A DNA stretch of 64,000 nucleotides, from NCBI GenBank assembly GCA_021787535.1, contig JAJYLR010000003.1:56-64055 (forward strand), read 5' to 3'. Position 1 is the first letter of the stretch. Every line of letters starts with the position of its first letter. Shown piece after piece: positions 5,770 through 26,785 of this stretch. Both the position numbers and the translations under genes were made by a program. The notes under the pieces were generated by a model. It was not told where the DNA came from, made no database searches, and was given only the letters and a program-made list of their open reading frames with translations. Origin of the DNA: a bacterium (GTDB lineage Bacteria; Patescibacteriota; CPR2; UBA1875; JAJYID01).

Positions 5770-5799
5770 TTGACATACAGTTTGAAACAAACTTATAAT
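5770..5799 (+). promoter_or_regulatory. Sigma70-type promoter for the major pilin (TTGACA-18-TATAAT)
   Basis: TTGACA at 5770-5775 and TATAAT at 5794-5799, about 40 nt upstream of the pilin start. Confidence 0.5.
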
Positions 5800-5841
5800 G
5801 GCGCTGTAACTTAAAATGGCTATGCCAGAAAGGAGGTGAAA

Positions 5842-6234: not shown

Positions 6235-6301
6235 AAGTATTTGTTCTAAAAAACAGTCCTAAGGGGCTGTTTTTTAGTGGGATAAAAGTTATAATAGATA
6301 T

Positions 6302-6691: not shown

Positions 6692-7266
6692 AAACATTAG
6701 GCCAAAAAGGATTTACCATTATCGAAATGACTATAGCTGTTGTTATTTTAGGCATAATAGTAGTGGTGATCAGCGATATGTATTTAAAGGGCACCATTTC
6801 TTCAAAAACAGAAATGGCGAGGTCTAAGCTGCAGATTGAAGAGAAAAATGCACTTGAAGGAATAACTAACAATGTTACGCTGAGTACAAAAATCGATTCC
6901 GATTACGGCAGCGGCGCATACACGGGAGGGCAACAAACCTTGATTTTAGACTTGCCGGCTATAGACAGCGGCAATAATTTTCTATATAGCGGCAGCCAGA
7001 AAGTCCATGATTATATAATTTATTATCTAAGCGGTTCGGATTTGCATAAGCTTGTTTATTCAAGCGATCCTGATAGCCGGCTGCATTCTGAAGACGGCAG
7101 CGACCAAATATTGCTTTCCGATGTCAAAAGCTTGTCATTTACCTATGATGCTGCTCTGCCAAATAGCGTAACAGTAACAACAAATCTGATAATTCAGGAT
7201 ACTGCCCAAAATCCGCCGCAGGAAGTAAACATGAGCTCAAAAGCAATGAGGAGGAATAGTGACTAG
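6688..7266 (+). CDS. Minor pilin (prepilin-type N-terminal domain)
   Basis: KGFTIIEMTIAVVILGIIVVVI. The gene overlaps its neighbours by 4 nt. Confidence 0.6.
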   Translation: MKTLGQKGFTIIEMTIAVVILGIIVVVISDMYLKGTISSKTEMARSKLQIEEKNALEGITNNVTLSTKIDSDYGSGAYTGGQQTLILDLPAIDSGNNFLYSGSQKVHDYIIYYLSGSDLHKLVYSSDPDSRLHSEDGSDQILLSDVKSLSFTYDAALPNSVTVTTNLIIQDTAQNPPQEVNMSSKAMRRNSD

Positions 7267-8524
7267 CAAGAAATTTTCAATTTTCAATTTTCAATTTTCA
7301 ATGTCCCTGATTTTGCGGCCGCTTAGAAATAGGCAGCTTTTGCCAAGCCGCCAGGGATCAATCTTGGTTCTATTTATTATTGTTCTGTCTGTCATGACTA
7401 CGATCGTTCTGGCCGTTTCGGGGCTTGTTTTAAATAACCGGATTGGAGTTGAGCGGACTTATCAGAAAGACAAAGCTTTAAATATTGCCGAGGCGGGGAT
7501 ACAAAAAGCGCTGTGGGAACTAAAGGGTCATAACCCATCCTATACCGGAGAAACGGGTAATACTTACATTGCGGGCGGGGAATTTGATGTTACAGTCACT
7601 CAAATTGATGCGAACAACGATTACATTACATCAACAGCTTATGTTCCCTCGAAAGCCAATCCTAAATACAAAAAAGCGATCAAAGTTAAAATATCTGATA
7701 CGCCGGTTACTACAAATCCGGCCTTTAGCTACGCTATTCAGGCGGGAGCAGGAGGTATCGATGTGGGCGGATCGAGCGAGGTACATGGCAGTCTTTATTC
7801 TAATGGTGCAATCTCTGTATCAGGCGCATCAGCAACAGTAAATGATCCCGGAGATGCTTGGGCAGTCACAACTATTACCGATCCCAAAGGCGGAATCAAA
7901 GGCACTAAAACGCAAGGAGCCCAGCCGGTAGCTTTGCCGACTATTGACTTGAACCAATGGCGGTCTTTGGCCCAAGCTGGCGGGACCATTACCGGCGACT
8001 ATTCTCCGCCTGCGACCGGTAGTTACACCAATTTTGGACCAAAAGAAATTACGGGGAATTTTTCAATGTCCGGATCAAATCAAAAAATGAATCTAATGGG
8101 GCCTTTGTATATCCACGGCAACCTAAATATTAGCGGTGGCGAATGGAAACTTGATGATTCCTTCGGGTCCAATGGCACGATAGTTTTGGTCGACGGCCAA
8201 ATCAGTATTACCGGAGGCGACTTTCATGGCAATTCCAGCGGATCTTATATTTTATTTATTTCTACTAGTACCGCTAACACTAAAGACAGCGGTTCTGCAA
8301 TATATTATAGAGGCAATGCTAATGGTGAAAAGCTGGCTCTTTATGCATATAATGGAGCGATGACGTTGGCAGGTTCCGGCGAAATTATCGCAATGACCGG
8401 ACAAACCTTGTTTTTAAACGGCAGCGGAGAGATACACTATGACAGCGGCCTGAAGTCCGAACAGTTTGCCGGCGGCCCCGGCGGGACTTGGGTTGTGAAA
8501 GAATGGCAGGAGATATCGCCCTGA
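7259..8524 (+). CDS. PilX-like large minor pilin (PilX N-terminal domain)
   Basis: GTG start after AGGAGG. RQGSILVLFIIVLSVMTTIVLAVSGL resembles PilX_N. The C-terminal region is rich in G, S and T. Confidence 0.55.
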   Translation: MTSKKFSIFNFQFSMSLILRPLRNRQLLPSRQGSILVLFIIVLSVMTTIVLAVSGLVLNNRIGVERTYQKDKALNIAEAGIQKALWELKGHNPSYTGETGNTYIAGGEFDVTVTQIDANNDYITSTAYVPSKANPKYKKAIKVKISDTPVTTNPAFSYAIQAGAGGIDVGGSSEVHGSLYSNGAISVSGASATVNDPGDAWAVTTITDPKGGIKGTKTQGAQPVALPTIDLNQWRSLAQAGGTITGDYSPPATGSYTNFGPKEITGNFSMSGSNQKMNLMGPLYIHGNLNISGGEWKLDDSFGSNGTIVLVDGQISITGGDFHGNSSGSYILFISTSTANTKDSGSAIYYRGNANGEKLALYAYNGAMTLAGSGEIIAMTGQTLFLNGSGEIHYDSGLKSEQFAGGPGGTWVVKEWQEISP

Positions 8525-8733
8525 CGGGAATGACTAATTAACAATTTCTAATGTCTAATCAAATTCAAATGACCAAATTTCAAAAATTGACGTTTATAAA
8601 TTAGGTATTGTTAAGTATTGATTAGACATTAGAAATTAGGATTTAGAAATTACTCATATGAATTGCTTAAATACTTTGGTTTAAATATAATAAAGATAAT
8701 TATAAAAAGATTAGTTAAGTTACCGGAGGGTTT

Positions 8734-9786
8734 TTGCTTAAGCAAGATCTGATTTATAAAGAAAAAGATTGCCTGGGGCTTGATATCGGCGCCAGTTCGG
8801 TTAAAATCGTCCAGCTTAAAAAGAAAAAGTCGCTGACAAAGTTGATGGGCTACGAAAGCAAGGCGCTTCCGGAGAATATCATTATCGAAGGTGTGATTTC
8901 CGAGCCGGAAAAATTGGCTCAAATGATTAAAGGCATGATAAGCGAGACGAAGGAAGGCAAGTTTACTGCAAAAAAAGCCATTGCTTCAATACCAGATGCA
9001 AATGTTTTCACCAGAGTTTTGGAGATGCCGCCTCTTTCCGCTAAGGAACTGAAAGAAGCTCTCATGTGGGAAGCGGATCAGTCAATACCGATGGCTATGA
9101 CTGATCTTGTCATTGATTGGCAGGTCCTCGGCCCGTCTATTACCAAAAAAGGCATGAATGATATCCTGCTTGTTGGGGCGCCGCTTGCGATTGTCAACTC
9201 TTATGTCCAGCTCTTTGACAAACTAGGTCTCCAGCCGGAAGCGATTGAAACTAGTTTGGTCTCAGTTATTCGGGCGCTTGTGTCAAATAAGGAGCGCGAT
9301 GAAGTAATGCTAGTTGTCGATATTGGATCAAGGTCTACAAACTTAGGTTTTTATGATCATACTCTGCGGCTGGCCGACAGTTTGGATTTCGGCGGATTAA
9401 ACTTTACAGATGCGATCAGGGCCGGCGCTCAAGTTGACGAAAAAAAAGCTGAGGAAATGAAAATGAAAATTGGGCTGAAAGATAAAAAAGTCGCCGAAGC
9501 GCTTGATAGTATTCTTGCCAATTTGAAGAGTGAGATGAGCAAAGTTATTAAATATCACGATGAGAGAAATGAAACTAAGACTTCGAAAGTTATTCTTTGC
9601 GGAGGATCTTCGAACCTTATAGGTCTGACAGAATACTTGGCTGAGGCACTGAAAGTAGAGGTTAAGGTCGGAAATCCATGGGTTAATATCGACACTTATC
9701 CTTTAAAGCCCGTGCCGAAAGCCGAAGCTCCTGCATATGCCAATGCTATCGGGCTTTCGCTGAGGGCTATGGAGGCAATAGTATGA
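8734..9786 (+). CDS. pilM: Type IV pilus assembly protein PilM (actin-like ATPase)
   Basis: LGLDIGASSVKIVQL N-terminal actin-fold motif. TTG start after GGAGGG. It is followed by pilN and pilO. Confidence 0.8.
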   Translation: MLKQDLIYKEKDCLGLDIGASSVKIVQLKKKKSLTKLMGYESKALPENIIIEGVISEPEKLAQMIKGMISETKEGKFTAKKAIASIPDANVFTRVLEMPPLSAKELKEALMWEADQSIPMAMTDLVIDWQVLGPSITKKGMNDILLVGAPLAIVNSYVQLFDKLGLQPEAIETSLVSVIRALVSNKERDEVMLVVDIGSRSTNLGFYDHTLRLADSLDFGGLNFTDAIRAGAQVDEKKAEEMKMKIGLKDKKVAEALDSILANLKSEMSKVIKYHDERNETKTSKVILCGGSSNLIGLTEYLAEALKVEVKVGNPWVNIDTYPLKPVPKAEAPAYANAIGLSLRAMEAIV

Positions 9787-10355
9787 TCCAGGTTAATTTA
9801 TTGCCTGAAGAGATACGGGAAAACATTAACTTTTCTAAGAAGAATCGAAAAGTTTTAAATCTTTTGAAAATGATATCTATCCTCTGCCTTTTCATATTAG
9901 CCGGTTTCCTGATCATTGGAGCATCACTTCTTTCCAGCAGCAGTTTCTTTAAAAAAGCGATTAGCGAGTCTACAGATACTCTGAGATCCTATCAGCCCAG
10001 TATCGATGAAAAAGAAAACATAGAAAACAAAGGGGTGATCGTCGCTAATATTCGGAAAAACTATAGATATTGGACTAAGTTCAACTATATCTTAGCTGAG
10101 AACACGCCTCAAGGGATTTATCTCTCCACGGTAGCCAACAAAAATAAGACTTTGCAAATAGAAGGTTATGCGAAGACTAAAAACGATGTCGGGATTTTTA
10201 GGGACGCTCTAGGCAAAAGCTCTGCTTTTTCAAATGTGAACATCGAGAGTATAAAAGAAGTGCCGGATCCTCTAAATCAGAACCTTCAAGTGAATGACTT
10301 CATCATGACTATGGCGCTTGAGAATGCGGCGACAAATCAGGGAGGCGGACGATGA
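9783..10355 (+). CDS. pilN: PilN
   Basis: MIQVNLLPEEIRE N-terminus with one TM segment, translationally coupled to pilM. Confidence 0.7.
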   Translation: MIQVNLLPEEIRENINFSKKNRKVLNLLKMISILCLFILAGFLIIGASLLSSSSFFKKAISESTDTLRSYQPSIDEKENIENKGVIVANIRKNYRYWTKFNYILAENTPQGIYLSTVANKNKTLQIEGYAKTKNDVGIFRDALGKSSAFSNVNIESIKEVPDPLNQNLQVNDFIMTMALENAATNQGGGR

Positions 10356-10933
10356 GAGTGAAAAAAATAAATGCGCGGTCGCTTCTCGGAATCCTTTACG
10401 GATTTTTAGGGCTTATTATAATCTTAACGTTGGCAGCCGGGGTATATCTTGCCCTCAAGGTAAATGACCTGAGCTTAGAGGTAGCAAAAAACAGATATTT
10501 ATCGGTAAATAACAATCAGAAAATAGAGGCCCTCGCTAACCTTCAAAAAAATTTAAAAGAAATGTCTGATGAAAAGGCGCTTTTGGATAGCTATCTGCCT
10601 CAGGATAAAGAAGTTTCCAGTATCTTGAAGGACTTTGAAACATTATCGGGGGCAAATGGCTTAAGTTTCAGTATTTTTACCGCCGGCGAAGGATCTTCAA
10701 CCACAACATTCAAACCTTCGAGCGACCAGACGCAAAAGTCCGGCAACTATTATGTTTTTCCATTTCAGGTGACTGTCAACGGCAGCTTCGCCCGCATCAA
10801 CCTAATGATGAGGGAAATGGAAAATTATAAGAGATTAGTAGAAATCAAAGATATTAAGTATGCAAAAGATACCAGTGCCCCGTCAGATATTACAGAGGCA
10901 GTTTTACAAGTTAACGCTTATTTAAAAAAATGA
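10352..10933 (+). CDS. pilO: PilO-like
   Basis: Single TM plus a periplasmic domain, in operon position after pilN. Confidence 0.5.
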   Translation: MRVKKINARSLLGILYGFLGLIIILTLAAGVYLALKVNDLSLEVAKNRYLSVNNNQKIEALANLQKNLKEMSDEKALLDSYLPQDKEVSSILKDFETLSGANGLSFSIFTAGEGSSTTTFKPSSDQTQKSGNYYVFPFQVTVNGSFARINLMMREMENYKRLVEIKDIKYAKDTSAPSDITEAVLQVNAYLKK

Positions 10934-11238
10934 AAATTCCAAAACCACCAAAGCCACCGAAGCTAAAAAGGCAAATTCAGTTCAATTTCTCTGCGAAGAT
11001 GCCATATATTTTTATAGCGCTCTTTCTTGCCGTTGGTTTGTCTATGGTGGCTTTCGGCTACCTTCTCCTAAACCGCCAGCCGCAGCAGTCGGTTGTCTCA
11101 GGCATGCAAAACGAGATAGACGGTCTGAAACTTAATTATGATAAAAGAAAAACAATGGAACTTTTCAATACGATGTATAATACTTCTGATTTCAAAAACT
11201 CTGCTTTTCAAGGCAAAGATCCTTTCATGAGTTTTTAA
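10930..11238 (+). CDS. Small membrane protein (possible PilP-like, hypothetical)
   Basis: Coupled to pilO and has one TM segment. Confidence 0.3.
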   Translation: MKIPKPPKPPKLKRQIQFNFSAKMPYIFIALFLAVGLSMVAFGYLLLNRQPQQSVVSGMQNEIDGLKLNYDKRKTMELFNTMYNTSDFKNSAFQGKDPFMSF

Positions 11239-11244
11239 AGTGCC

Positions 11245-11273
11245 TTGACCTGTGCGGCCGTTTCGATTATAAT
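11245..11273 (+). promoter_or_regulatory. Sigma70-type promoter (TTGACC-17-TATAAT) driving a ~270-nt leader
   Basis: TTGACC at 11245-11250 and TATAAT at 11268-11273. Confidence 0.5.
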
Positions 11274-11532
11274 TATTCAGCGTTCGAAACGACTTACCGT
11301 TTTCATGAGAAACCAGAAGTATGGTAATTTCTCAAGGTAAAATGTTTTGTTCGTACCTACAGATACAGGGATACGGGTCCCTACAAACTTCCTGAGGCGG
11401 AAGTATACGTAAGGTCTGTAGGTTGATTTCAATGGGTACTAAGAATCTGGCAAAAGCAAGTGAAACTCTGATTGTTGATAGATTCAGTTCTCTTCTTGAA
11501 AAAAATGACATCTCAGCCTCCTCTCTATTCAA

Positions 11533-11558
11533 GGGCGCTCCCGTAAGCGCTCTTTTTC
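11533..11558 (+). terminator. Intrinsic terminator/attenuator inside the leader upstream of the GT4 gene
   Basis: GCGCT-cccgta-AGCGC hairpin followed by TCTTTTTCC. Confidence 0.45.
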
Positions 11559-11633
11559 CTTTGGAAATTTTATCCGGCGGCTTTTTTATGAAAAAAAGCT
11601 TTCCAAAAAAAGCGCATTGTTTATACTTAGGTT

Positions 11634-12869
11634 ATGAATGCAGTCAAAACACAGAGAGGCATCGGTCTAGAGCATTATCAGGGTATTATTGATGATTCCC
11701 TTTTTGATGAGGTTGTTGGTCTGGCCAGGCGGCTCAAGGATGTTCGGGTTTGCCATATAAACGCCACTTCATACGGCGGAGGCGTAGCAGAAATTCTTCA
11801 AAAAGAAATTCCTCTGGCAAAAGGAATGGGTCTTCAGTTTGACTGGAAAACAGTTTCCGCTGAACCGGGATTTTTTGATGTAACCAAAAAAATACACAAT
11901 GGGCTTCAAGGGGCAGATGTGAAAATTTCCGAGCGCGAATGGCAGATATATCAAAGCTGCAATATCGATCAGGTGAAGCGTATTAACCCTAGCGATTATG
12001 ACGTTTTCTTTATTCACGATCCTCAGCCGGCTGAGATCATCGGCTGCATCGGCAAAAACGGCGCCAAGTGGGTCTGGCGATGCCATATCGATACTGATGA
12101 GCCAAACCGGGCGATTGCCGATTATTTCCTGAAGTTTTTAAATTTATATGATGCGTCTATATTCACTATGAAAGATTACGTCTTAAAAGGCATGAAAAAC
12201 GATATTTTTATTATTGAACCGGCCATCGATCCGCTTGCTATAAAAAATCGCTGCTTATCACACAAAGAAGCTGAAGAACTGGTGAGGGGTTTTCATATTG
12301 ATACGAGCAGGCCGCTTGTCACCCAGGTGTCGCGCTTTGATCCCTGGAAAGATCCGATTGGCGTAGTTGATGCCTACCGAGCAGCTAAAAAGGAAATGCC
12401 TGAGCTGCAGCTTGCCATGATCGGTTCCATGGCCGATGATGATCCGGAAGGGCAAGAAATTTATAATCAGCTAAAAGAGTATGCAGGCGAAAATCAAGAT
12501 ATTCATATTCTTACCAACCATGATGCGCTACACGACATCGAAGTCAACGCTTTCCAGACTTATTCGGATGTTATAATCCAGAAATCCGTCAAAGAAGGTT
12601 TTGGGCTGACGGTTTCCGAAGCGCTCTGGAAAGAAACGCCGGTTATAGGCGGCAACGTCGGCGGGATACCGACTCAGATTCAAGATGGCAAGACCGGATT
12701 CCTCGTAAATAATTCGCTAGAATGCGCCGAAAAGATCGTTTATTTAGTTAAAAATAAAAAGATTGGCGAAAAAATGGGAAAACTTGGCAAAGAGGATGTC
12801 CGGAAAAAATTTCTCTTACCCCGGCTTCTGCGAGATGAGCTAAAGCTGATAGAAAAGCTAGTCCACTAA
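11634..12869 (+). CDS. GT4 family glycosyltransferase (trehalose synthase TreT-like)
   Basis: 411 aa. The C-terminal half carries EGFGLTVSEALWKETPVIGGNVGGIP, a GT-B nucleotide-sugar binding motif. Overall layout resembles the TreT/GT4 clade. Confidence 0.55.
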   Translation: MNAVKTQRGIGLEHYQGIIDDSLFDEVVGLARRLKDVRVCHINATSYGGGVAEILQKEIPLAKGMGLQFDWKTVSAEPGFFDVTKKIHNGLQGADVKISEREWQIYQSCNIDQVKRINPSDYDVFFIHDPQPAEIIGCIGKNGAKWVWRCHIDTDEPNRAIADYFLKFLNLYDASIFTMKDYVLKGMKNDIFIIEPAIDPLAIKNRCLSHKEAEELVRGFHIDTSRPLVTQVSRFDPWKDPIGVVDAYRAAKKEMPELQLAMIGSMADDDPEGQEIYNQLKEYAGENQDIHILTNHDALHDIEVNAFQTYSDVIIQKSVKEGFGLTVSEALWKETPVIGGNVGGIPTQIQDGKTGFLVNNSLECAEKIVYLVKNKKIGEKMGKLGKEDVRKKFLLPRLLRDELKLIEKLVH

Positions 12870-17092: not shown

Positions 17093-17095
17093 TAT

Positions 17096-17122
17096 TAGCA
17101 CTCGGACACCGAGAGTGCCAGA
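17096..17122 (+). promoter_or_regulatory. CIRCE operator (HrcA binding site)
   Basis: TTAGCACTC-ggacaccga-GAGTGCcAg matches the CIRCE consensus TTAGCACTC-N9-GAGTGCTAA. Confidence 0.8.
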
Positions 17123-17258: not shown

Positions 17259-17969
17259 ATGACATCACGCAGAGAAGCGATATTAGAAGCGATTGTTCGT
17301 GAATACGTCGAAACGGCGGAGCCGGTTGGCTCTTTAACGCTTGTTCGGAAGTACGCTTTTCCTTACTCCTCAGCCACGATTCGTGCTGAGATGGCCATGC
17401 TGGAGGAAAATGGCTTCATCATGCAACCGCACACTTCAGCGGGAAGAATTCCGACCGAAAAGGGTTATAAATATTTCGTCAAAATGATTGAGAATGAAGA
17501 AAAAAGCCTGGCCGGTCGTGAGGAGGATATATTAAAAAAGCGCATTGAAGCTATGCATGCTCAATACGAGCGTAAGTTTGACGCCGCCGCGCTGGCACTG
17601 GCCGAGATGACTAGAAATGTAGCGCTTTCTACGCTTGGCCAGGAAGTGTATTCGCATGGTTTGGCAAACCTTTTCCGCCAGCCGGAGTTTATAGATACGG
17701 ATCGCGTGCTGGGGATAGCCGACATGATTGACAACATGAGCACGCTGTTAAACGAATTACCCAGAAGCAAGAATTTCATGGTTCTGGTTGGCTCCGAGAC
17801 GCCTATTGGCAAGTCAGCCGACGCATCACTTGTCATATCGAGAGTAGACACTCCCTACGGGGTTCGCGGATATTTAGGTGTCTTGGGTCCCACCAGGATG
17901 AGTTATGAAAGGGTAATTCCATTAGTTAAACGCACCAGAGATTTGCTGGAGAATGATTTAAATAGGTAG
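17259..17969 (+). CDS. hrcA: Heat-inducible transcription repressor HrcA (short form)
   Basis: N-terminal winged helix ILEAIVREYVETAEPVGSLTL and C-terminal GVLGPTRMSYERVIPLV. CIRCE lies upstream. Confidence 0.8.
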   Translation: MTSRREAILEAIVREYVETAEPVGSLTLVRKYAFPYSSATIRAEMAMLEENGFIMQPHTSAGRIPTEKGYKYFVKMIENEEKSLAGREEDILKKRIEAMHAQYERKFDAAALALAEMTRNVALSTLGQEVYSHGLANLFRQPEFIDTDRVLGIADMIDNMSTLLNELPRSKNFMVLVGSETPIGKSADASLVISRVDTPYGVRGYLGVLGPTRMSYERVIPLVKRTRDLLENDLNR

Positions 17970-18053
17970 CTTTACAAGGGTCCGACCCTTCTAGGGACGA
18001 ATTCTTTGCGAGGGTCGGGCCCTTGTAAAACGGGAGAACAAATCACCTTCTCC

Positions 18054-18087
18054 TGTCATTCCCGCTCAGGCGGGAATCCAGACAAGC
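18054..18087. repeat. Repeat unit TGTCATTCCCGCTCAGGCGGGAATCCAGACAAG
   Basis: Same termini with a different hairpin stem. Lies upstream of grpE. Confidence 0.5.
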
Positions 18088-18141: not shown

Positions 18142-18729
18142 ATGAAAGAGAAAGACAAGAAAGCCAAAGGCAAAAAGGAAGACCAACTGGATTCCCGCCG
18201 GAGTTTATCCGACGAAGCTAAAGCGTGGGCGGGTGGGAATGACAAGAAAGAGGTCAGGAATGAAAATATAGAAGCCGAGCATGACAAGGGTCAGACCCTT
18301 GCAATGGAAAATGTTGCTTTGAAGAAGATGCTGCAGCGGGCACAGGCGGATTTTATAAATTACCGCCAGCGTGCAGAGCGGGAGAAGTCAGAAATGGTCG
18401 ATTACGGCAAGCTGGAGACGATTAAGGAGCTTCTGCCGGTATTCGACAACTTCGAACGGGCCAGAAACCATTTCCCGAAGGAGCTGGAGAAGAATGATTG
18501 GGCGCAGGGGATGCTCGCGGTAGAGAAGCAGTTTGTCCAGAAAATGGAAGAAATGGGGATTAAGAGAATCCCGACAGTCGGCGAGCAATTTGATCCAAAT
18601 TTACATGAGGCAATACACATGGAGCCGGCAAAAGGCAAGAAATCGAATGAGATTACCTGCGAATACGAACCGGGATACATATATAAAGATAAAGTTTTAA
18701 GGTATGCAAAGGTAAAGTTGGCAAAATGA
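18142..18729 (+). CDS. grpE: Nucleotide exchange factor GrpE
   Basis: Coiled-coil N-terminus, LLPVFDNFERA motif and a C-terminal beta domain. Confidence 0.8.
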   Translation: MKEKDKKAKGKKEDQLDSRRSLSDEAKAWAGGNDKKEVRNENIEAEHDKGQTLAMENVALKKMLQRAQADFINYRQRAEREKSEMVDYGKLETIKELLPVFDNFERARNHFPKELEKNDWAQGMLAVEKQFVQKMEEMGIKRIPTVGEQFDPNLHEAIHMEPAKGKKSNEITCEYEPGYIYKDKVLRYAKVKLAK

Positions 18730-19412
18730 AGTTTGAACTAAAAAGGTACAATAAAGGTCCTAGAAAAGATTATCGCAATATAACTAATGAGGAGCTGATT
18801 ACTGATTTGCGGGATGTCGCTAATAGGTTACAGAAAGAGTCAGTCACTCATGGAGAATACGACCAGAATGGCAGATTTAATAGTCATATTTTTGGTAGAA
18901 GGTTTGGAGGTTGGTTGAACGCACTTGAAGAAGCTGGTCTTCAAAAAACAAGAAATTATCAAATAGCTGATGAGGAAGCATTTCAAAATTTAGAGAATGT
19001 TTGGATGAAACTGGGGCGACAACCTAGGCGCGAAGATTTACATAGACCACTTTCAAAGTATAGCGGAGCATTCTATGAATATCGATTTGGTGCATGGAGC
19101 AAGGCGCTGGAAAAGTTTATTAATTATATTAACAAGGCAGAACTCAGTACATTAGAGAGATCCGAAAATACAACAAGTAATCCGAGTATTCAACATAAAA
19201 CAAATAGGAATATAAATTTGCAGTTACGTTTTATTGTCATGAAAAGAGATAATTTTAAATGTCAAAAATGTGGTCGATCGCCAGCAACTGACTCGAGCAT
19301 AATTCTACATGTTGATCATAAAAAAGCATGGGCGAATGGTGGTGAAACAGTATTGGAAAACTTGCAGACACTTTGTTCGAAGTGCAACATAGGTAAAAGC
19401 GATTTGGAGTAA
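18726..19412 (+). CDS. Free-standing HNH endonuclease with two homing-endonuclease-associated repeats
   Basis: C-terminal HNH signature: CQKCG...LHVDHKKAWANGGETVLENLQTLCSKCN. N-terminal repeats read RFGGWLNALEEAGL and YRFGAWSKALEKF. ATGA overlap with the grpE stop. Confidence 0.75.
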   Translation: MKFELKRYNKGPRKDYRNITNEELITDLRDVANRLQKESVTHGEYDQNGRFNSHIFGRRFGGWLNALEEAGLQKTRNYQIADEEAFQNLENVWMKLGRQPRREDLHRPLSKYSGAFYEYRFGAWSKALEKFINYINKAELSTLERSENTTSNPSIQHKTNRNINLQLRFIVMKRDNFKCQKCGRSPATDSSIILHVDHKKAWANGGETVLENLQTLCSKCNIGKSDLE

Positions 19413-19446
19413 TTAAAAACGTTAAGGTTAAAGAAGGAGAAATAAA

Positions 19447-19593
19447 ATGGGGAATGAATCAGATTATACATGTGGAAATTGTGGGAGGAATTATCAAATC
19501 AACACAGAGGGTGAACGGATTCAGCCATGCCCTTATTGTGGTGCAAATGAAATGGTAAAGACATTGGAAGGTAAAGTTATTAAGAAAAAATAA
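19447..19593 (+). CDS. 48-aa zinc-ribbon protein (CGNC...CPYC)
   Basis: MGNESDYTCGNCGRNYQINTEGERIQPCPYCGANEMVKTLEGKVIKKK. Its RBS/start GGAGAAATAAAATGGG repeats the dnaK start context. The track missed it because it is shorter than 60 aa. Confidence 0.4.
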   Translation: MGNESDYTCGNCGRNYQINTEGERIQPCPYCGANEMVKTLEGKVIKKK

Positions 19594-19614: not shown

Positions 19615-21567
19615 ATGGGAAAAATTATCGGAATTGACCTTGGTACAACCAACTCAGCCATGGCGGTGATGGAAGGCGGAAAGGCCACCATTATCCCGAA
19701 CGCTGAAGGCGGAAGGACCACACCGTCCATCGTGGCGATGACCAAGGACGGCGCCACGAACCAGACGGTTCATGGCGGCGAGAGGCTAGTCGGACAAGCG
19801 GCCAAAAGGCAAGCAGTTATAAATCATGAGAATACAATCTTCTCAGTGAAGCGTCTGATCGGGCGAAAGTTTGACGATGCGGAGGTGAAGCGCGACATCG
19901 AGCTCATGCCGTACAAAATTGAAAAAGGAAACGGTGGAGTGAAGGTGAAGATGGGCGATAAGGATTACTCACCGGCTGAGATTTCGGCAATGATTTTACA
20001 GAAGCTGAAGGCTGATGCGGAAAGCTATCTGGGCGGTAGCGTGACTGAAGCGGTTATCACCGTGCCGGCCTACTTCAACGACTCACAAAGACAGGCCACC
20101 AAAGATGCAGGAAAGATTGCGGGCTTGGAAGTAAAGAGAATCATCAACGAACCGACCGCAGCCGCGCTGGCTTACGGATTAGACAAAAAGAAGGAAGAGA
20201 AGGTTGCCGTTTATGACCTTGGCGGAGGTACGTTTGACATCTCTATCCTTGAGCTTGGTGATGGCGTCTTTGAAGTAAAGTCAACCAATGGTGACACTCA
20301 TCTTGGCGGTGACGACTTCGACCAGCACTTGATCGATGAGCTGGCTGAAGAGTTTAAGAAAGACCAAGGCGTTGATCTGAAGAAAGATACAGCTGCGCTA
20401 CAGAGACTTAAAGAAGCAGCCGAGAAGGCGAAAATTGAGCTTTCTTCTGCCATGGAGACGGAGATTAACATCCCGTTTATTACGGCTGACGCATCCGGTC
20501 CTAAGCATTTGACCATGAAGTTAAGCCGGGCAAAGTTCGAGTCCATCGTTGGCGAACTAGTCGACAAGACATTAAAGCCGGTTGAAAAGGCTTTGAAGGA
20601 TGCCGGAATTAAAAAGGAAGATGTGAACGAGGTGATCCTGGTCGGCGGTATGACGAGAATGCCGCTGGTGCAGAAGAAGGTGAAGGAGTACTTCGGCAAA
20701 GATCCGCTGAAAGGCGTGAATCCTGACGAGGTGGTGGCGATCGGCGCTGCTATCCAGGGTGGTGTGCTTGGCGGAGAGGTGAAGGATGTTCTTCTTCTCG
20801 ATGTCACTCCACTTTCACTTGGTATCGAGACTCTTGGCGGTGTTTCCACCAGATTAATCGAGAGAAATACGACTATTCCGACGAGCGCTTCGCAGGTGTT
20901 CTCAACGGCGGCTGACAATCAGACTTCTGTAGAGATTAACGTGCTGCAGGGTGAGCGTGAATTTGCCAAAGACAACAAATCGCTTGGACGATTTATACTT
21001 GATGGTATTCCACCGGCACCTCGAGGCATTCCTCAGGTTGAGGTAACCTTTGATATCGATGCCAACGGTATCGTCAATGTTTCTGCTAAGGATAAGGCAA
21101 GCGGGAAATCGCAGCACATAACCATCCAATCTTCATCCGGACTTTCAGAGGAAGAGATCGAGAAGATGAGAAAAGACGCTGAGGCGCATGCCGAGGAAGA
21201 TAAGAAGCAGAAAGAGCTGGTTGAGATCCGAAATATGGCTGACTCCTTAATTTACACTTCGGAAAAGACCGTCAAAGATGCCGGAGACAAGGCAACAGAC
21301 GAGGAGAAGAAGGATGTCGAGGATAAGATTAAAGAGCTTCGTGAAGTGAAGGATAAGGATGACAAGGATGCGATTCAGAAAGCCTATGATGAACTGTCTG
21401 AGGTCATTCAAAAGATTGGTGCAAAGATGTACGAATCTCAAGCCGGCGCTGAAGGCGGTGAATCTACCGAAGAACCAAAGAAAGACGAAGGACCAGTTGA
21501 GGGTGAGGTTGTAGACGAAGATAAGAAAGATCCTTCATCAGATTCAGGACAAGCTGAAGAGAAATAA
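19615..21567 (+). CDS. dnaK: Chaperone DnaK (Hsp70)
   Basis: [18 protein letters not shown] and the canonical substrate-binding domain. Acidic C-terminal tail. Confidence 0.95.
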
Positions 21568-21575
21568 TTCCACTT

Positions 21576-21671
21576 TGTCATCCTCGGACTTGATCCGGGG
21601 ATCCAGACAGTCAGTGGGAAATTGACTGGATCCCCGCCTTCGCGGGAATGACAAAAAGAAGGGGAATGACA
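21576..21671. repeat. Repeat element with nested palindromes (TGTCATCC...CGCGGGAATGACA, GGGGAATGACA)
   Basis: CCGGGGATCC...GGATCCCCG long stem. Two GAATGACA ends. Lies immediately after the dnaK stop. Confidence 0.55.
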
Positions 21672-21824
21672 AATGTAAGTGAATTATTAATTCATTGATC
21701 CGACCAGGGCTCGGAAAGTGATTTCCGGGCCTCATCGGGTTAAGAGCCTGTACATTTTAGCTAAATAGTGGTAAAATTTATGCCACGAAAACCAAAAAAT
21801 TCGAGTACCTGAGGAGGTGTAGCC

Positions 21825-22247
21825 TTGACAGAACTAACGGAAGAACTAAATCAGCTAATGGCAGCTGAAACGATGGCGAATGATCTCTCACGTAAGTTTG
21901 TTAAAGTCATTCGCGGCTTATCTCCGGAAGAATTTTGGGAATTTTTGAAAGACACGAAAGTTCCTATTATCAGAGATATGCCTGAGGGTGTCATAAGAAT
22001 CTTGGTGGTCAGGTTGCGAGATCCGGACATTGTCGCCTTTGAAGACTCTGTCTCTACTTGCAGGAGCAAGATTGCAAAGATCGAAAAGATACACCGTGAC
22101 TTTGTCACCTCTTCACTAGCTACCCTCTCTGATATTGAGAAGGAGAGTCTGGCAAGAAGGCTGGATCCAACTCTTGTTCCGCGAGAAGAAAGATCCTGCG
22201 GGACAGGTTCCTCTGGTTGGGGTGGCGGAGGCGGAGGCGGTAAGTAA
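21825..22247 (+). CDS. Hypothetical protein with C-terminal poly-Gly tail
   Basis: TTG start after GAGGAGG. Ends ...SSGWGGGGGGGK. GC-rich. Confidence 0.4.
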   Translation: MTELTEELNQLMAAETMANDLSRKFVKVIRGLSPEEFWEFLKDTKVPIIRDMPEGVIRILVVRLRDPDIVAFEDSVSTCRSKIAKIEKIHRDFVTSSLATLSDIEKESLARRLDPTLVPREERSCGTGSSGWGGGGGGGK

Positions 22248-22283
22248 GTTCAGTCACAAAAATCACCGAGGAGGTGACCACAT

Positions 22284-22890
22284 GAAAGATAGATTCTCCG
22301 GCGTGGTGCACGGCATAACCCGAGTAGTATTGACCGCTCCGCTGCGCAGGCTCTGGGGCTGCCATGTCATTGGCGCGGAAAATCTTCCAGCGCAGGGCCC
22401 AGCGATATTTGCATCGAACCATGCGAGTTATCTGGACCCCATGATTCTCGGAATCAGCTATGCAGGCAACATTCGCTGGATGGCGAAAGCCGAGCTCTGG
22501 AAGATACCGGTTTTCAGGTGGCTTATCGAAAAGCTGGGGGCATTTCCGGTCAGGCGCGGCAAGCCTGATAGGGCGGCCCTTCGGCAGGCACGCGAACTGC
22601 TTGTCGGGAAAAAGGTCCTCGGGATGTTTCCCCAAGGCACGCGGATTAAGGGGGAAGACCTCGGCGAAGCTTTTCCGGGAGTCGGTATGATTGCCTTGTC
22701 CGAGGATATCCCAGTGATTCCTATTCGGGTGAGAGGCCATAATCAGGTTTTCCGGCGGGGGATACCACGCTTTCCGGCGATAACAATCACTGTCGGTGAA
22801 CCGATAGATCTCGAGATCAAAGGGATGAGGCGGAGTGAGGCAGCTAAGGAGGCGGCCAACCGTATCATGGCAGCAATCAAGGCTTTATGA
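22284..22890 (+). CDS. Lysophospholipid (1-acyl-glycerol-3-phosphate) acyltransferase family protein
   Basis: HX4D motif FASNHASYLDP, a PVRRG-type motif FPVRRGKPDR, and FPQGTR. ATG at 22284 follows GAGGAGGTGA. The track ORF starts earlier, at 22135. Confidence 0.7.
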
Positions 22891-22907
22891 CTCGGGAGGT
22901 GACGGAG

Positions 22908-23054
22908 ATGGAACCAGGAACGGGTACGGCTGTAGGTTTCCTGATGGCTGCTCTGCTAATTGCGGTATTGGTCATTGCAATGATCGCAGATGATAACGAT
23001 ACCGCAGGGAATAACGTTTACCCACAGGTTGCAAAGACAATCAGCCAACCCTAA
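22908..23054 (+). CDS. Small single-TM peptide (hypothetical)
   Basis: 48 aa. RBS GGGAGGTGA. Hydrophobic core AVGFLMAALLIAVLVIAMIA. Confidence 0.25.
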   Translation: MEPGTGTAVGFLMAALLIAVLVIAMIADDNDTAGNNVYPQVAKTISQP

Positions 23055-23070
23055 CACAGGAGGACAGCGT

Positions 23071-23253
23071 ATGCACAAAGGCACTTATGAGAAGCCAGCT
23101 CTTGTTCAGGAAGGTGATCTCAAACGCATCACTGGTACGGATGCGGGTTGGCAGAGCAGTATTGCGACTGCCCACAATACCAAGAAGCATGAGTGCCATT
23201 GTGGTGATGGCGCCCATGGGTGTGGCTGTAGTCACGATCACGACGCCGCCTAG
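23071..23253 (+). CDS. Small Cys/His-rich protein (HECHCGDGAHGCGCSHDHD), putative metal-binding
   Basis: ATG at 23071 after GGAGG. 60 aa ending in a dense C/H cluster. Confidence 0.35.
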   Translation: MHKGTYEKPALVQEGDLKRITGTDAGWQSSIATAHNTKKHECHCGDGAHGCGCSHDHDAA

Positions 23254-23365
23254 AAGGAATGGCGGGGGTGTAAGGATTTGCAAAAGGGCAGGGCGTTCGC
23301 GCCCCGCCCATTCAATTTAAGAGACAATTTAGATAGAAATTTGGTATAATTTTTATATAGATTCC

Positions 23366-23384
23366 TGTTTTCACGGGAATGACA
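23366..23384. repeat. 3'-end fragment of the repeat (TTCACGGGAATGACA), 11 nt before the dnaJ start
   Basis: Matches CTTCGCGGGAATGACA at 21640-21653. Confidence 0.4.
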
Positions 23385-23395
23385 GAAAGAGGAAT

Positions 23396-24514
23396 ATGGC
23401 AAGTAAAGATTATTATGAAATACTAGGCGTCAAGAAGGATGCCGGAGTGGACGAAATCAAGAAGGCTTATCGCAAGCTGGCTTTAAAGTATCATCCGGAT
23501 AAAGGCGGCGGAGCCGAAGCTGAGTCGAAATTTAAAGAGATTAACGAGGCCTACCAGATTCTTTCCGACCCCGAGAAGCGCCAGGCGTATGATCAGTTTG
23601 GTTCCACCCAGCCGGGTGGTGGGTTTAATTGGCAGCAGTACCAGCAGCAGGCCGGGCAAGGTTATGACGGTGGTTTTGAAGGGTTCGACTTTTCGGATCT
23701 TGGAGGATTTGGCGATATATTTGAAACATTTTTCGGCGGTGGCGGAGGCAGGTCTCGCGCGCGAAAAGGCGCTGACCTCGAAACCGTCATTACTGTAGAT
23801 TTCAAAGAGGCGGTTTTCGGTGCGGAAACTTTCATCAAGCTAAACAAACATTTTGAGTGCGAAAAGTGCGGCGGGTCAGGCGCAGAAAAAGGCACGGAAA
23901 TGGTGGAGTGCAAGGTTTGCCATGGCGCCGGCAAGACCCAGACGGCCAGGCGTACAATTCTCGGCACGTTTGCCCAAACTGCCATCTGCGAGGAGTGCCA
24001 AGGGCAGGGTAAGGTGCCAAAAGTCGCCTGCTCGGTCTGCAAGGGTAAGGGAATTGTTAAAACTGAAAAAGAGGTTAAGATCAAAATCCCGGCCGGTGTT
24101 GACGATGGGCAAACTATCCGGCTCTCAGGATTGGGCGAGGCCATGAAGGGCGGTGCAACCGGCGATCTCTATGTCCACATCCGGGTGCGGCCGAATGATA
24201 AGATTAAACGAGAAGGATACAATCTCATGAATACGGCCGTCATTTCATTTGCCGAAGCGGCCATGGGCACGGTCATCGAAGTGCCGACCATTGATGGTAA
24301 TGTAAAACTGAAGATTCCGGCAGGCACCCAAAGTGAAAAGGTCTTTAAATTATCTAGCCGCGGTGTGCCGCATCTTGGTGGAGGTAAGCGTGGTGATCAT
24401 CTGGTGACCATCAAAGTTCGCGTGCCGGAAAAATTAACGAAGAAACAAAAAGAACTCTTGGAAGAATTTCAGAAAGAAGAGGGTAAAGAAAAGCCCAAAT
24501 TCTGGCCGTTCTAA
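23396..24514 (+). CDS. dnaJ: Chaperone DnaJ
   Basis: J-domain with HPD (KYHPDKG), a G/F region, and four CxxCxGxG zinc-finger repeats. Confidence 0.95.
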
Positions 24515-25284
24515 TTATCTTTTCTCTCAACCTGATCGCTCTGCCAAACTAGATTGAATATGGCCCCTAAAGCGCCTGCGAGATATGGATTTTCGATTAA
24601 GGTCCCGTTGATGTTTCCCTTGAAGGAAATAAAGGAAACTTTCTCGGCATAAATATATATTTGGGTATATATGCCGAAAAGATCATTTGGCACGTAAGCT
24701 CTGTCTTTGTAATATATCCGATCTTTTAGGTTCTGAGCTTTAGTTAAGTTGGCAGGGGAAATAATACGAGTTTTTATGTCCGCACTTGCCCGTCTTTTTG
24801 CTTCTTCAGCGAGAAAGTCGTCGACCTTTTTCTTATTTTCAACAGATCTAAAAATTAGAAGTTCTTTTGGCTTTTCTCTTACGATATCGTCGAATAGCTT
24901 TTTTATGCCTTTTCGCCCTTCATAATGAGAAATGCCCGGTTTATTATTTATAAGATTATAGTCAGATATCATATCCGGAAGCATGTTCTCTATAATCTGC
25001 GTATTCTCGAGAGACTCTTTCTCTTTTTTCTCAGCATAGCTTAGAAGTTTCTGCGGATGGCTAATGCGATATGTCAATTTTTTCTTCCTGCTTATGCGTT
25101 CGATTAAGTCTTTTTCCTCGAGCTTATTTAAGACTGAATATGTGTTTGTTCTTGTAAGTTTAGACTTTTTTGCTATATCACTGGCTATAAGCGGCTCGCT
25201 GGCCAAAAGAATTTCGTAAACTCTGGTTTCGCTAGAGGTTAATCCGAGTTTTTCAAGGACTGCTTTTTTCATAATTTCCTCCAA
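24511..25284 (-). CDS. TrmB-family transcriptional regulator
   Basis: N-terminal wHTH: [46 protein letters not shown]. Confidence 0.55.
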
Positions 25285-25403
25285 GGTTATTAATAATTCT
25301 TATTCTAAATTATGTTATTTATAATGTCAATATGATAATGACATTATATATTGAATCTTCATATCTATACTAAAATATTGTTTCACACAGTGTCTTTATA
25401 CTA

Positions 25404-25432
25404 TTGACACTTCTATAGAACAGTTGTACTAT
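25404..25432 (+). promoter_or_regulatory. Sigma70-type promoter (TTGACA-17-TACTAT)
   Basis: TTGACA at 25404-25409 and TACTAT at 25427-25432, ahead of a GC-rich two-gene cassette. Confidence 0.45.
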
Positions 25433-25554
25433 ATGTCTCGCGATAGGGTGAGTCGGGTACATTGAGAGAAAAATGGCTGCGGTTTGGGGCAAGATATATC
25501 CCCCAGACTGCAGCCATCCGGTTGCAGCAAAGACAACCGAAAGGAGAAGAAGAA

Positions 25555-25959
25555 ATGAGAGTATTTGGATGGATCGTTGCGGGATTCCTTGGAATCTTAG
25601 CGGTCATTACACTGGCAACGGCAATCACCTGGTACGCAACAGGTGGGCAGTATCTGATCATCAGATTCTGGGCGCCAAGAATGGCTGCTGTTGAGCGCCA
25701 GATCTTCGTCCAGACGCCTTCCTATGTCCAGGGGATGCAGCAGGAGCTTGACTCCTATCATCTGGACTATCTGAAGGCGCAGTCGAAAGGCGACACCGGC
25801 CATATGGATGCGATTGCCGATATCGTCCTGCATCGCGCAGACGAGATCGATAACAGTCTGCTGTCGGATGATCTTCAGAGCTGGATTCAGCATCTGAAGG
25901 CCGAAAGAGAGGCGAAGGCGATGGGATCCGAAACAAAGACAAGTACCACTGGTTACTAG
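25555..25959 (+). CDS. Hypothetical membrane-anchored protein (GC-rich)
   Basis: ATG at 25555 after AAAGGAGAAGAAGAA. N-terminal TM VFGWIVAGFLGILAVITLATAI. The track ORF starts at 25462. Confidence 0.4.
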   Translation: MRVFGWIVAGFLGILAVITLATAITWYATGGQYLIIRFWAPRMAAVERQIFVQTPSYVQGMQQELDSYHLDYLKAQSKGDTGHMDAIADIVLHRADEIDNSLLSDDLQSWIQHLKAEREAKAMGSETKTSTTGY

Positions 25960-25986
25960 ATACACCAAAAACAAGGAGGAATTACC

Positions 25987-26520
25987 ATGAAAAAGTGGTT
26001 TATTGCACTAGCGATCGTGGTTTTCGCCGGTGTAACCCTGATAGCCGCCGGCTGCAACGACGCACCGAAGACTGCGGACAGCGCCCAGCGCGATCGGCAG
26101 GAAAAGCTTCAGTCTGATGAAGCAAACCAGGTCGGCATGCCGGATATCAAGAACTTCAGGGAAGCGAAGATCCTGAAGGATCTCTACGAGAAGCGCGACC
26201 AGATGGACCTCGCGACCTACACCTACGTTTACAACGAGATGAGCGGGAAGTTCGTCTTCCTTGGCGAAAGCGTGGGGTACGGTATTCCTTACTCGACCCA
26301 GTTCAGCAATCCAGATAAGGTTGAGTATCATGGCGATCAGGGTGCTGGCAACGTTGTAATACCTCAAGCTGAACCGAACGGTCTCTTCACCCCCAGTTCC
26401 ACCGAAGGAACTTGGGTCATGTTGAAGGATCCGAACGGCTCAGGTGTCACACCGGTCTACGTCGAACCTCGCGTTCTCGTTTCGCAGTTCAAACTGCCAG
26501 ACAGCATCGTGCAACACTAA
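25987..26520 (+). CDS. Lipoprotein (hypothetical, GC-rich)
   Basis: Signal peptide with lipobox LIAAGC. RBS AAGGAGGAAT. Confidence 0.5.
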   Translation: MKKWFIALAIVVFAGVTLIAAGCNDAPKTADSAQRDRQEKLQSDEANQVGMPDIKNFREAKILKDLYEKRDQMDLATYTYVYNEMSGKFVFLGESVGYGIPYSTQFSNPDKVEYHGDQGAGNVVIPQAEPNGLFTPSSTEGTWVMLKDPNGSGVTPVYVEPRVLVSQFKLPDSIVQH

Positions 26521-26547
26521 CAGGACTGAGCAGGCCTACTGCTCAAT

Positions 26548-26578
26548 GCCCCGGAACTATGTTTCGGGGCCTTTCTTA
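26548..26578 (+). terminator. Intrinsic terminator after the lipoprotein gene
   Basis: GCCCCGGAA-ctatg-TTTCGGGGC followed by a T-run. Confidence 0.5.
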
Positions 26579-26602
26579 TAAAATGCCCAGAAGACATTTC
26601 GT

Positions 26603-26628
26603 TTCTGGTGGGTCGGCTGGGATTCGAA
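26603..26628 (-). repeat. 26-nt duplicate of the tRNA-Lys 3' end (T-arm + acceptor + CCAGAA)
   Basis: TTCTGGTGGGTCGGCTGGGATTCGAA is identical to 26707-26732, 104 bp away. Confidence 0.7.
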
Positions 26629-26676
26629 GCGGCTCGCCGCATTCGGCTTAACTGGGTTCTCACCAAGCACTCCACC

Positions 26677-26701
26677 AAAATAAAAACTCCACTTCGTGGA
26701 G
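26677..26701 (-). terminator. Intrinsic terminator downstream of tRNA-Lys
   Basis: Minus strand reads CTCCACGAAGTGGAG followed by TTTTTATTTT. Confidence 0.5.
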
Positions 26702-26709
26702 ATTTATTC

Positions 26710-26785
26710 TGGTGGGTCGGCTGGGATTCGAACCCAGGACATCCTGCTTAAAAGGCAGGCGCTCTACCAACTGAGCTACCGACCC
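26710..26785 (-). tRNA. tRNA-Lys (anticodon TTT)
   Basis: Reverse complement is GGGTCGGTAGCTCAGTTGGTAGAGCGCCTGCCTTTTAAGCAGG...GGTTCGAATCCCAGCCGACCCACCA, a cloverleaf with CCA encoded. Confidence 0.85.

Follow-up and report, generated by a model that had tools for sequence, protein, structure and literature searches.

Why should a heat-shock locus as conserved as hrcA-grpE-dnaK-dnaJ carry four small genes between two of its chaperone genes, and how did they come to be there? The question is raised by a 64-kb stretch of contig JAJYLR010000003.1 (hereafter the window, in whose positions coordinates are given), in which a CIRCE-like operator, hrcA, grpE, dnaK, a spacer array, and dnaJ follow one another in that order, the operator lying upstream of hrcA at the start of the locus that hosts the array. 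The block under study is exactly the dnaK-dnaJ spacer, from the end of dnaK at 21567 to the start of dnaJ at 23396. Its four open reading frames (ORFs) are co-directional, each preceded by a strong Shine-Dalgarno (SD) sequence, and encode a 140-aa protein with a poly-Gly tail (p140), a PlsC-like acyltransferase with an HX4D motif (plsC), a 48-aa transmembrane (TM) peptide (TM48), and a 60-aa Cys/His peptide (cys60). A first-pass annotation had described these four genes and their coordinates correctly, and had read them as a single GC-rich, horizontally acquired insert bounded or mobilized by repeats. Comparison with related loci (numbered with the prefix L) leads to a different answer, namely that the interval is probably the local state of a hypervariable array of small-gene cassettes in the dnaK-dnaJ spacer of a WS5-like lineage, reshuffled by recombination.

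Array Content in Related Loci

Relatives were found by a DnaJ-based scan using one genome per species, which gave four close loci, and exact-protein look-ups added more; all of the sequences compared are metagenome assemblies. Where the orthologous anchors enclose the spacer, or immediately upstream of them, six different gene contents were found. The window carries p140, plsC, TM48, and cys60, and the L006/L100 array (DnaK and DnaJ both 93% identical to those of the window) encodes proteins of 104, 46 (Cys-rich), ∼90, and 37 aa. L003, labeled candidate division WS5 by NCBI (DnaJ 79%), has plsC followed by ORFs of 97 and 39 aa, the terminator, and a further 101-aa ORF before dnaJ. The sequence upstream of dnaJ encodes 101, 83, and 60 aa in L007 (DnaJ 87%) and 76 and 60 aa in L009, whose content is that of L007 minus the 101-aa ORF, and the L096-L099 array (DnaK 94%, DnaJ 78%) consists of ORFs of 51, 69, 60, 73, 66, 138, 71, and 95 aa. 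The arrays span 0.8-2.7 kb with ORFs of 37-202 aa; the gaps between ORFs measure 34, 17, and 16 nt in the window, and one pair of ORFs overlaps in L006. The full four-gene set, whose absence from relatives the first-pass annotation had proposed as a check, was found at this site in none of the relatives compared.

Families are shared between arrays in changing combinations. The p140 family is common to the window and L096 (65% identity, to the 138-aa ORF), plsC to the window and L003 (81%), a 97/101-aa family to L003 and L007 (55%), a Cys-rich 60-aa family to L007 and L096 (82%), and PY-leader peptides, to which cys60 is related, to the window, L003, and L006. L006, the closest relative, has no plsC, p140, or TM48 homolog in its array, and its 37-aa peptide is the PY-family relative of cys60; all four window genes are missing from the 0.85-1.25 kb upstream of dnaJ in L007/L009; and the L096/L097 array contains, of the four, only the p140 homolog, with no plsC. 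Other cassette ORFs of the relatives gave no PHROG match and one marginal PADLOC match. Such differences exist even within a sample, as the window contig (L001) and L100 both belong to ENA ERZ27233565, so that window-type and L006-type arrays co-occur in one metagenome, in populations that share about 93% DnaK/DnaJ identity and carry different arrays.

Conserved Frame and Cassette Junctions

The leader region, with its promoter-like site, is common to arrays of entirely different content (Table 1), and its core is 88% identical over 34 nt to that of L006. At the other end, the window, L003, and L006 have in common a GGGCGGGGCGC...GCGCCCCGCCC stem after their last peptide gene, with folding z-scores of -3.1 to -5.7.

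Within this frame, a recurring module of ribosome-binding site and start codon, GGAGGTGAC(GGAGATG), is found at cassette borders. Of the eight ORFs in L096, six have GGAGGTGACGGAGATG in front of them at 0-1 mismatch, and the six module copies all lie within 1.9 kb (758-2644), with none elsewhere in the 9.8-kb locus; the window has a single exact copy (22895-22910) and no 0-1-mismatch copy in the rest of its length. The window and L096 can be aligned through the end of p140 and CGAAAATCACCGAGGAGGTGAC, after which they diverge immediately, into plsC in the former and a 71-aa ORF in the latter, and homology between the window and L003 stops directly after the plsC stop codon and GGGAGGTG. The one-cassette difference between L007 and L009 has both deletion endpoints inside a repeated GGAGGTrAyGrAAATGGCAGAA.

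The anchors themselves differ in their relationships. Window DnaK is 94% identical to that of L097, whereas for DnaJ the identity to the same organism (L096) falls to 78%; DnaK is equally close to the window in L006 and L097, and L096 DnaJ groups with that of L003, to which it is 93% identical. This incongruence of DnaK and DnaJ points to a recombination breakpoint within or adjoining the array. A scan of 23 larger ORFs (138-539 aa) lying between 11.6 and 60.5 kb of the window, among them every larger ORF from 13.2 to 32.7 kb except dnaK and dnaJ themselves, detected no integrase or transposase domain, nor was any recombinase domain found in the gene tables of the related loci. An inverted-repeat scan of the two end spacers (21560-21830 and 23250-23400) returned only the flanking palindrome and the terminator, with no attC, and the 16-34 nt gaps between the window cassettes leave no room for attC sites, which are imperfect inverted repeats of about 60-140 nt.

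Table 1. Features of the heat-shock locus and its spacer array, in window coordinates.
Feature	Position	Strand	Remarks
CIRCE-like HrcA operator	17095..17121	+	2 mismatches to TTAGCACTC-N9-GAGTGCTAA; 0.01 expected
hrcA	17259-17969		HrcA Pfam match
grpE	18142-18729		
dnaK, left anchor	19615..21567	+	Conserved; 93-94% aa identity to L006 and L097
Composite palindromic repeat (MITE/REP-like)	21574..21664	.	About 82 nt; nested inverted repeats
Conserved array leader with promoter-like site	21665..21780	+	81% over 116 nt to L096/L097
Promoter-like site, TGTACA-17-TGgTAAAAT	21749-21777	+	Consensus prediction
Cassette 1, p140	21825..22247	+	TTG start; poly-Gly tail; predicted all-helical ORFan
Cassette junction, CACCGAGGAGGTGAC	22263..22281	+	L096 homology stops directly after GGAGGTGAC
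Cassette 2, plsC	22282..22890	+	202 aa; PlsC/LPLAT-family acyltransferase; HX4D at 22420-22437; FPQGTR block
Junction module, GGAGGTGACGGAGATG	22895..22910	+	Exact copy; SD, spacer, and start
Cassette 3, TM48	22908..23054	+	48 aa; one hydrophobic helix, AVGFLMAALLIAVLVIAMIA
Cassette 4, cys60	23071..23253	+	60-aa Cys/His peptide
GC-rich terminator-like hairpin closing the array	23257..23313	+	GGGCGGGGCGC loop GCGCCCCGCCC stem
Promoter-like site for dnaJ, GAGACA-18-TGnTATAAT	23321..23350	+	Consensus prediction
dnaJ 5' leader with 21-nt repeat fragment	23357..23395	+	Conserved upstream of dnaJ in L096
dnaJ, right anchor	23396..24514	+	Conserved

Family, Origin, and Age of plsC

The plsC product matches PF01553 over residues 28-150 (95.6 bits; cut-off 23), and its HX4D motif, NHASYLD (H47-D52), and FPQGTR block align to PlsC of T. 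maritima (PDB 5KYM; E 4e-14). Its score against NCBIfam TIGR00530 (AGP_acyltrn) is 96.4 bits, below the cut-off of 102.95, and on account of this narrow miss the protein is filed as LPLAT-family or PlsC-like rather than as a proven 1-acyl-glycerol-3-phosphate acyltransferase. The conserved catalytic motifs and strong purifying selection suggest acyltransferase activity, and its presumed role is to acylate lysophosphatidic acid or other lysolipids in the building or remodeling of membranes.

The homologs comprise two near relatives at 90% and 81% identity, a next group at 50-62%, and all others at 44% or less. Wherever the genomic context of a homolog in the 50-62% group could be used, it proved to be a cmk-plsC-ispH operon with der and plsY nearby, the contigs having a GC content of 59-64%; the sole named member of the group is labeled Thermoleophilia. 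The array plsC and this group form one clade in 99 of 100 neighbor-joining bootstraps (34 taxa), no candidate-phylum homolog is present among the top 120 matches, and plsC is missing from the arrays of L006/L100, L007/L009, and L096-L099, the comparison covering the arrays only. Because it falls into a 99/100 clade with high-GC housekeeping genes, plsC appears to be foreign, and we conclude from this grouping that it was in all likelihood transferred into the array from a 59-64% GC lineage.

This transfer does not seem to have been recent, since the second carrier, L003, has a DnaJ only 79% identical, synonymous sites between the two genes are near saturation, and both are equally high in GC (0.566 in L003, as elevated as in the window). 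Between the window and L003, plsC shows a nonsynonymous divergence (dN) of 0.137, compared with 0.157 for dnaJ, a proportion of synonymous differences (pS) of 0.70, and a synonymous divergence (dS) of about 2; the resulting dN/dS of 0.067 signifies strong purifying selection, which shows that the protein is functional.

p140, TM48, and cys60

Of 1.84 billion representative proteins, a single other cluster proved related to p140, and its member too is encoded between dnaK and dnaJ. Scans of Pfam, NCBIfam, PHROG, and PADLOC assigned p140 to no family. A helical structure is predicted with low confidence (AlphaFold predicted local distance difference test score 51), and the protein is under moderate constraint (dN/dS 0.26); poly-Gly tails like its own are found on unrelated cassettes of L007 and L096. 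Neither p140 nor the PY peptides had relatives on viral contigs, so that carriage by phage is unsupported. TM48 matched nothing in Pfam, NCBIfam, PHROGs, or PADLOC, the family libraries to which its search was limited.

The N-terminal ∼38 residues of cys60 are homologous to a PYxKPxL...WQCS family (consensus xPYxKPELxxxxNLKDITFECPxWQCSVxVPPPP) that bears a YxxPxL lasso-type leader motif. Both family cysteines are replaced in cys60 and a new C-terminal Cys/His tail, HECHCGDGAHGCGCSHDHD, is added, which probably binds metal; CxC/His-rich tails also end two L006 cassettes. Outside the lineage, the PY family was found at 20 loci (L073-L092, 18 of them from a metagenome scan) on contigs of 53-61% GC. 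The peptide adjoins a large secreted protein carrying Ig-like, fn3, or beta-propeller domains at almost all of these loci, an HprK_rel_A-like kinase is nearby at five, and none is near dnaK, dnaJ, or plsC. By its homology, cys60 is best regarded as a diverged member of a PY family native to organisms of 53-61% GC. Examples of this uncharacterized neighborhood, which could be a modification or signaling system, are L075 245-3384, L080 2933-6114, and L084 1741-4974; downstream lie rpoB in L075 and a homologous ORF of ~1,180 aa in L079.

The leader motif of lasso peptide precursors is YxxPxL...T, with Thr at position -2 (PMC6784204). cys60 carries YEKPAL...T21, which fits this motif, and its residues 6-22 match the NF033521 lasso_leader_L3 model with E 0.037, the score of 14.1 bits falling short of the cut-off of 19. 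What follows the leader, TDAGWQSSI (or GTDAGWQSS), has no G/A/S/C start and no Asp or Glu at positions 7-9 to form the macrolactam, and no Asn-synthetase-like lasso cyclase, B1 protein or RiPP recognition element (RRE), or B2 protease was found in the array, among the larger window ORFs scanned, or beside the peptide at the 20 native loci (RiPP, a peptide made on the ribosome and modified after translation). As the core rules do not hold and maturases were not found, cys60 is not filed as a lasso precursor.

Base Composition

The 1-kb bin at 22001-23000 has a GC content of 0.543, the highest of 64 bins in a window with a mean of 0.432, and 300-nt windows reach a maximum of 0.573, the elevation being confined to about 22050-23250. 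The sharp rise reported by the first-pass annotation is therefore real in the bin and the 300-nt peak, although it had been assigned to all four genes and only plsC and cys60 are GC-rich. With a GC of 0.56 and a third-position GC (GC3) of 0.61, plsC is the highest among 70 ORFs (mean 0.44, standard deviation 0.05; z about +2.4), and the cys60 gene is at 0.54; TM48 (0.48) and p140 (0.47) are close to the level of the flanking dnaK and dnaJ, which are already at 0.49-0.50. A tetranucleotide scan gave the block z-scores of 2.3-2.8, whereas native dnaK, at 3.8, was the most atypical segment, so that composition alone does not discriminate. Thus, the non-uniform GC profile that had been expected of an insert is present, the tetranucleotide profile is uninformative, and base composition is suggestive only as evidence of transfer.

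Palindromic Repeats at the Spacer Ends

The complex repeat with nested palindromes that had been noted at the left edge was verified by its inverted arms (21574-21586/21643-21655 and 21596-21609/21623-21636) and by a related unit upstream of grpE at 18054-18085. It lies downstream of the dnaK stop codon and ahead of the array promoter region, i.e., outside the conserved frame, and is not present at the corresponding site in L096 or L006; it is an independent insertion. The repeat fragment claimed for the right edge also exists, but is no more than 21 nt long (23370-23390), matching at 90% with an E of about 0.02-0.03 within the window, and it is found upstream of dnaJ in L096 as well, whose array differs. 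There is no evident target-site duplication and the two ends do not have matching termini. The window has seven occurrences of a 13-mer core of the repeat, where chance would give 1.0. Since the left copy lies outside the frame and the right fragment is kept in L096, the repeats do not delimit the variable DNA; they are dispersed intergenic and in-frame elements of this genome and bystanders to the array.

Several repeat copies were observed elsewhere. One copy, of the GTCATTCCCGC/GCGGGAATGAC type, lies in frame within the 5' coding region of grpE (18186-18267) and is translated as LDSRRSL...AGGNDK; GrpE of L006 and L097 is without about 39 N-terminal residues. A MurD-like Mur ligase ORF (59039-60538) shows, in translation, apparent repeat-derived in-frame insertions (VIPAPDRVEGKAPAGIQ... 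and VIPSEALAKSRDLL...), and a match to the repeat core at 59164-59176 falls within it. A second palindromic family, ACAAGGGTC[CA]GACCCT... / GGTCAGACCTTTGAAAGGTCTGACC, sits in intergenic DNA around the operon in the window (17970-18028) and in relatives (L006 8540-8575 and 9900-9940).

Proposed Mechanism and Competing Explanations

In the mechanism proposed here, a conserved 5' promoter/leader and, in three arrays, one and the same GC-hairpin terminator on the 3' side would form a frame around short, co-directional, tightly packed ORFs, each placed after the GGAGGTGAC(GGAGATG) module. Cassettes would be gained, lost, and reshuffled by recombination. This may proceed through homologous exchange between related populations, with dnaK, dnaJ, and the frame acting as homology arms, and also through short-repeat recombination at the junction modules, of which the L007/L009 deletion is the one event seen directly. 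plsC probably entered the array horizontally from the 59-64% GC lineage, where it is a housekeeping gene of the cmk-plsC-ispH operon, and has since been kept as a functional enzyme.

Several points weigh against this reading. L007/L009 is the only direct junction-to-junction event observed, and SD sequences at the borders could merely reflect the need of each ORF for translation. The promoter and the terminator are predicted from consensus or structure, and the L003 contig starts inside plsC, so that adjacency to dnaK is not visible there. The branching inside the joint plsC clade is weakly supported (bootstrap 27 and 7), and it is the genomic context, rather than a resolved rooted tree, that suggests the direction of transfer. 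Finally, the data all come from metagenome assemblies, in which repeated junctions could in principle cause mis-joins; this concern is countered by identical gene calls for the window arrangement on two public assemblies and by recovery of the L096 arrangement in at least four samples.

The explanation offered by the first-pass annotation, in which the four genes form one horizontally acquired unit mobilized by, or inserted between, palindromic repeat copies as in a composite element bounded by miniature inverted-repeat transposable elements (MITEs), draws on the repeat at the left edge and the related 21-nt fragment at the right, on the GC-richness of plsC and cys60, and on the lack of the block in the closest relative. 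It is nevertheless hardly credible, as the supposed element encloses a promoter region that is kept with other cassettes in L096/L097 and L006, its ends (a palindrome of about 82 nt and a 21-nt fragment) are unmatched and show no evident target-site duplication, the left repeat is lacking at the L096 site while the right fragment stands there beside a different array, and the same repeat type occurs upstream of grpE and in frame inside it. Neither the bounding nor the mobilizing role given to the repeats survives the finding that the left copy is upstream of the conserved 116-nt region and that the right fragment accompanies another array in L096. The four genes are also distributed separately among the relatives, p140 occurring in L096 without plsC, plsC in L003 with other ORFs, and a PY peptide in L006 without plsC, which is at odds with a single insert. 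What stands of the view of the block as acquired cargo is that it is accessory and variable, with a plsC that appears to be foreign and of high-GC origin; it is not one unit, and the plsC transfer was not recent. Independent assortment likewise bears on the idea that the block is a RiPP-like unit, with cys60 as precursor, the PlsC-like enzyme for acylation or lipopeptide tailoring, p140 for recognition or as a chaperone, and TM48 for immunity or export. The genes are tightly packed and co-directional, cys60 combines a sub-threshold NF033521 match with a YxxPxL...T motif, L003 too has a PY-leader peptide within two genes after plsC, and in native high-GC loci the PY family is linked to the HprK_rel_A-like kinase, a type that occurs in some RiPP systems. 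We regard this as very unlikely, however, because the hidden Markov model match is under the curated cut-off of 19 bits and the core residues of cys60 are unfit, no lasso cyclase, B protease, RRE, or radical S-adenosylmethionine enzyme was found in the array or the larger ORFs scanned, and plsC has its closest outside relatives among the housekeeping genes of cmk-plsC-ispH operons. PY peptides are found in L006 without plsC and p140 in L096 without either, and the PY core is highly conserved and never beside an acyltransferase in native loci.

The history of plsC allows another explanation, that it is a native essential gene, ancestral between dnaK and dnaJ, with a high GC content caused by selection or expression, and was relocated in the loci that lack it. 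This agrees with its position upstream of dnaJ in two relatives with 79% identical DnaJ and a dN (0.137) close to that of dnaJ (0.157), with its dN/dS of 0.067, with a GC of 0.56-0.57 in both carriers despite a pS of 0.70, which speaks against unameliorated recent DNA, and with GC3 values of 0.58-0.66 in other native window genes. It is unlikely all the same, since plsC joins the 59-64% GC lineage in a clade with 99% support at 50-62% identity, against 44% or less elsewhere, without any candidate-phylum homolog in the top 120 matches, and since the other slots of the host array turn over and plsC itself is missing from that array in L006/L100, L007/L009, and L096-L099. A reshuffled cassette array that took up plsC from outside thus remains the likely account of the spacer.

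Surroundings of the Array

The grpE-dnaK spacer is likewise a variable slot (window 18726-19593; L006 5637-6589; L097 3779-4432). In the window it holds a free-standing HNH homing endonuclease of GC 0.36 (two HNH_repeat domains and HNH) and a 48-aa zinc-ribbon ORF, in L006/L100 a gene for a membrane protein of 195 aa with two small ORFs, and in L097 a Peptidase_S51 gene; that homing-endonuclease activity could aid local recombination is speculation. Downstream, the interval from dnaJ to tRNA-Lys (24511-26785, with the tRNA at 26710-26785) is a second compositional island and variable slot, comprising trmB on the minus strand (GC 0.375) and two ORFs without a Pfam match (25462-25959 and 25987-26520; GC 0.52-0.54, GC3 up to 0.66), and in L006 the tRNA follows within about 270 nt after dnaJ. 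Upstream of the heat-shock locus, at 2347-12000, translations alone indicate a type IV pilus cluster with a PilB-like ATPase, PilC, several pilins with N-terminal methylation motifs, and PilM/N/O-like ORFs.

Implications

What looked like a compositional island in a highly conserved operon would, on the cassette-array reading, be part of a strain-variable slot with a fixed regulatory frame and SD-delimited cassettes. A further, tentative possibility, which we hold to be more doubtful than the array itself, is that the dnaK-dnaJ spacer is a dedicated, integrase-free platform for gene capture and expression, a functional analogue of integrons that sits inside the heat-shock operon and works by short-homology recombination at the 16-23 nt module. 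If so, cassettes would be taken from distant GC-rich donors as well as from relatives and framed by the promoter and terminator, and the small proteins (Gly-tailed helical proteins, CxC/His-tailed peptides, and TM peptides) might be stress-linked accessory factors or clients or modulators of the chaperones. Should the junction-module mechanism hold, it would give small genomes a simple, integrase-independent way of sampling small-protein genes, including a foreign lipid acyltransferase. A search of the literature on cassettes between dnaK and dnaJ, and on WS5, found nothing relevant. The locus offers a compact place for studying small-protein turnover in uncultured bacteria, and it counsels caution in dating transfers by GC content, as the apparently foreign plsC is still high in GC after near-saturation of its synonymous sites.

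Comparison With Known Systems

The components of the array resemble known families in part. The plsC product shares PF01553, HX4D, FPxGTR, and a length of about 200 aa with T. maritima PlsC (5KYM), but unlike that 1-acyl-sn-glycerol-3-phosphate acyltransferase it is encoded in an accessory array in a heat-shock locus rather than in a lipid or cmk operon. As in lasso precursors, cys60 and the PY family have Y-x-K-P-x-L and a conserved Thr about 10 residues on, whereas the PY core, NLKDITFECPxWQCSVxVPPPP, is conserved like a small protein and RiPP cores are variable. In Rickettsia, palindromic elements are inserted in frame in coding genes; the repeats described here resemble these, and dispersed palindromes of the MITE or repetitive extragenic palindromic (REP) kind, in being short GC-rich units (GTCATTCCCGC...GCGGGAATGAC) scattered in intergenic DNA and in frame in grpE, and differ in having only a few copies per 64 kb and no tie to cassette borders.

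As a whole, the array can be compared with integrons and with flexible genomic islands. Integron arrays also have one upstream promoter, short, co-directional, mostly promoterless ORFs, variable content, and a shared cassette pool. A common promoter is predicted here too (at 21749-21777). An integron reading was rejected, as no IntI was found in the larger window ORFs scanned and the gaps between the window cassettes are too short for attC; unlike integrons, the array has a 16-23 nt SD/start module that recurs in direct orientation, and it is embedded between two core chaperone genes and not beside attI. Replacement-type flexible genomic islands flanked by core genes have been described for marine and other free-living bacteria. 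The spacer array is like these in occupying a fixed slot between conserved genes, in content that differs among co-occurring strains, and in presumed exchange by homologous recombination in the flanks, to which the incongruent DnaK and DnaJ trees would correspond here. It is unlike them in its size, 0.8-2.7 kb rather than tens of kb of surface-polysaccharide genes, and in possessing its own conserved promoter, the same terminator hairpin in three arrays, and a repeated junction module at its cassette borders.

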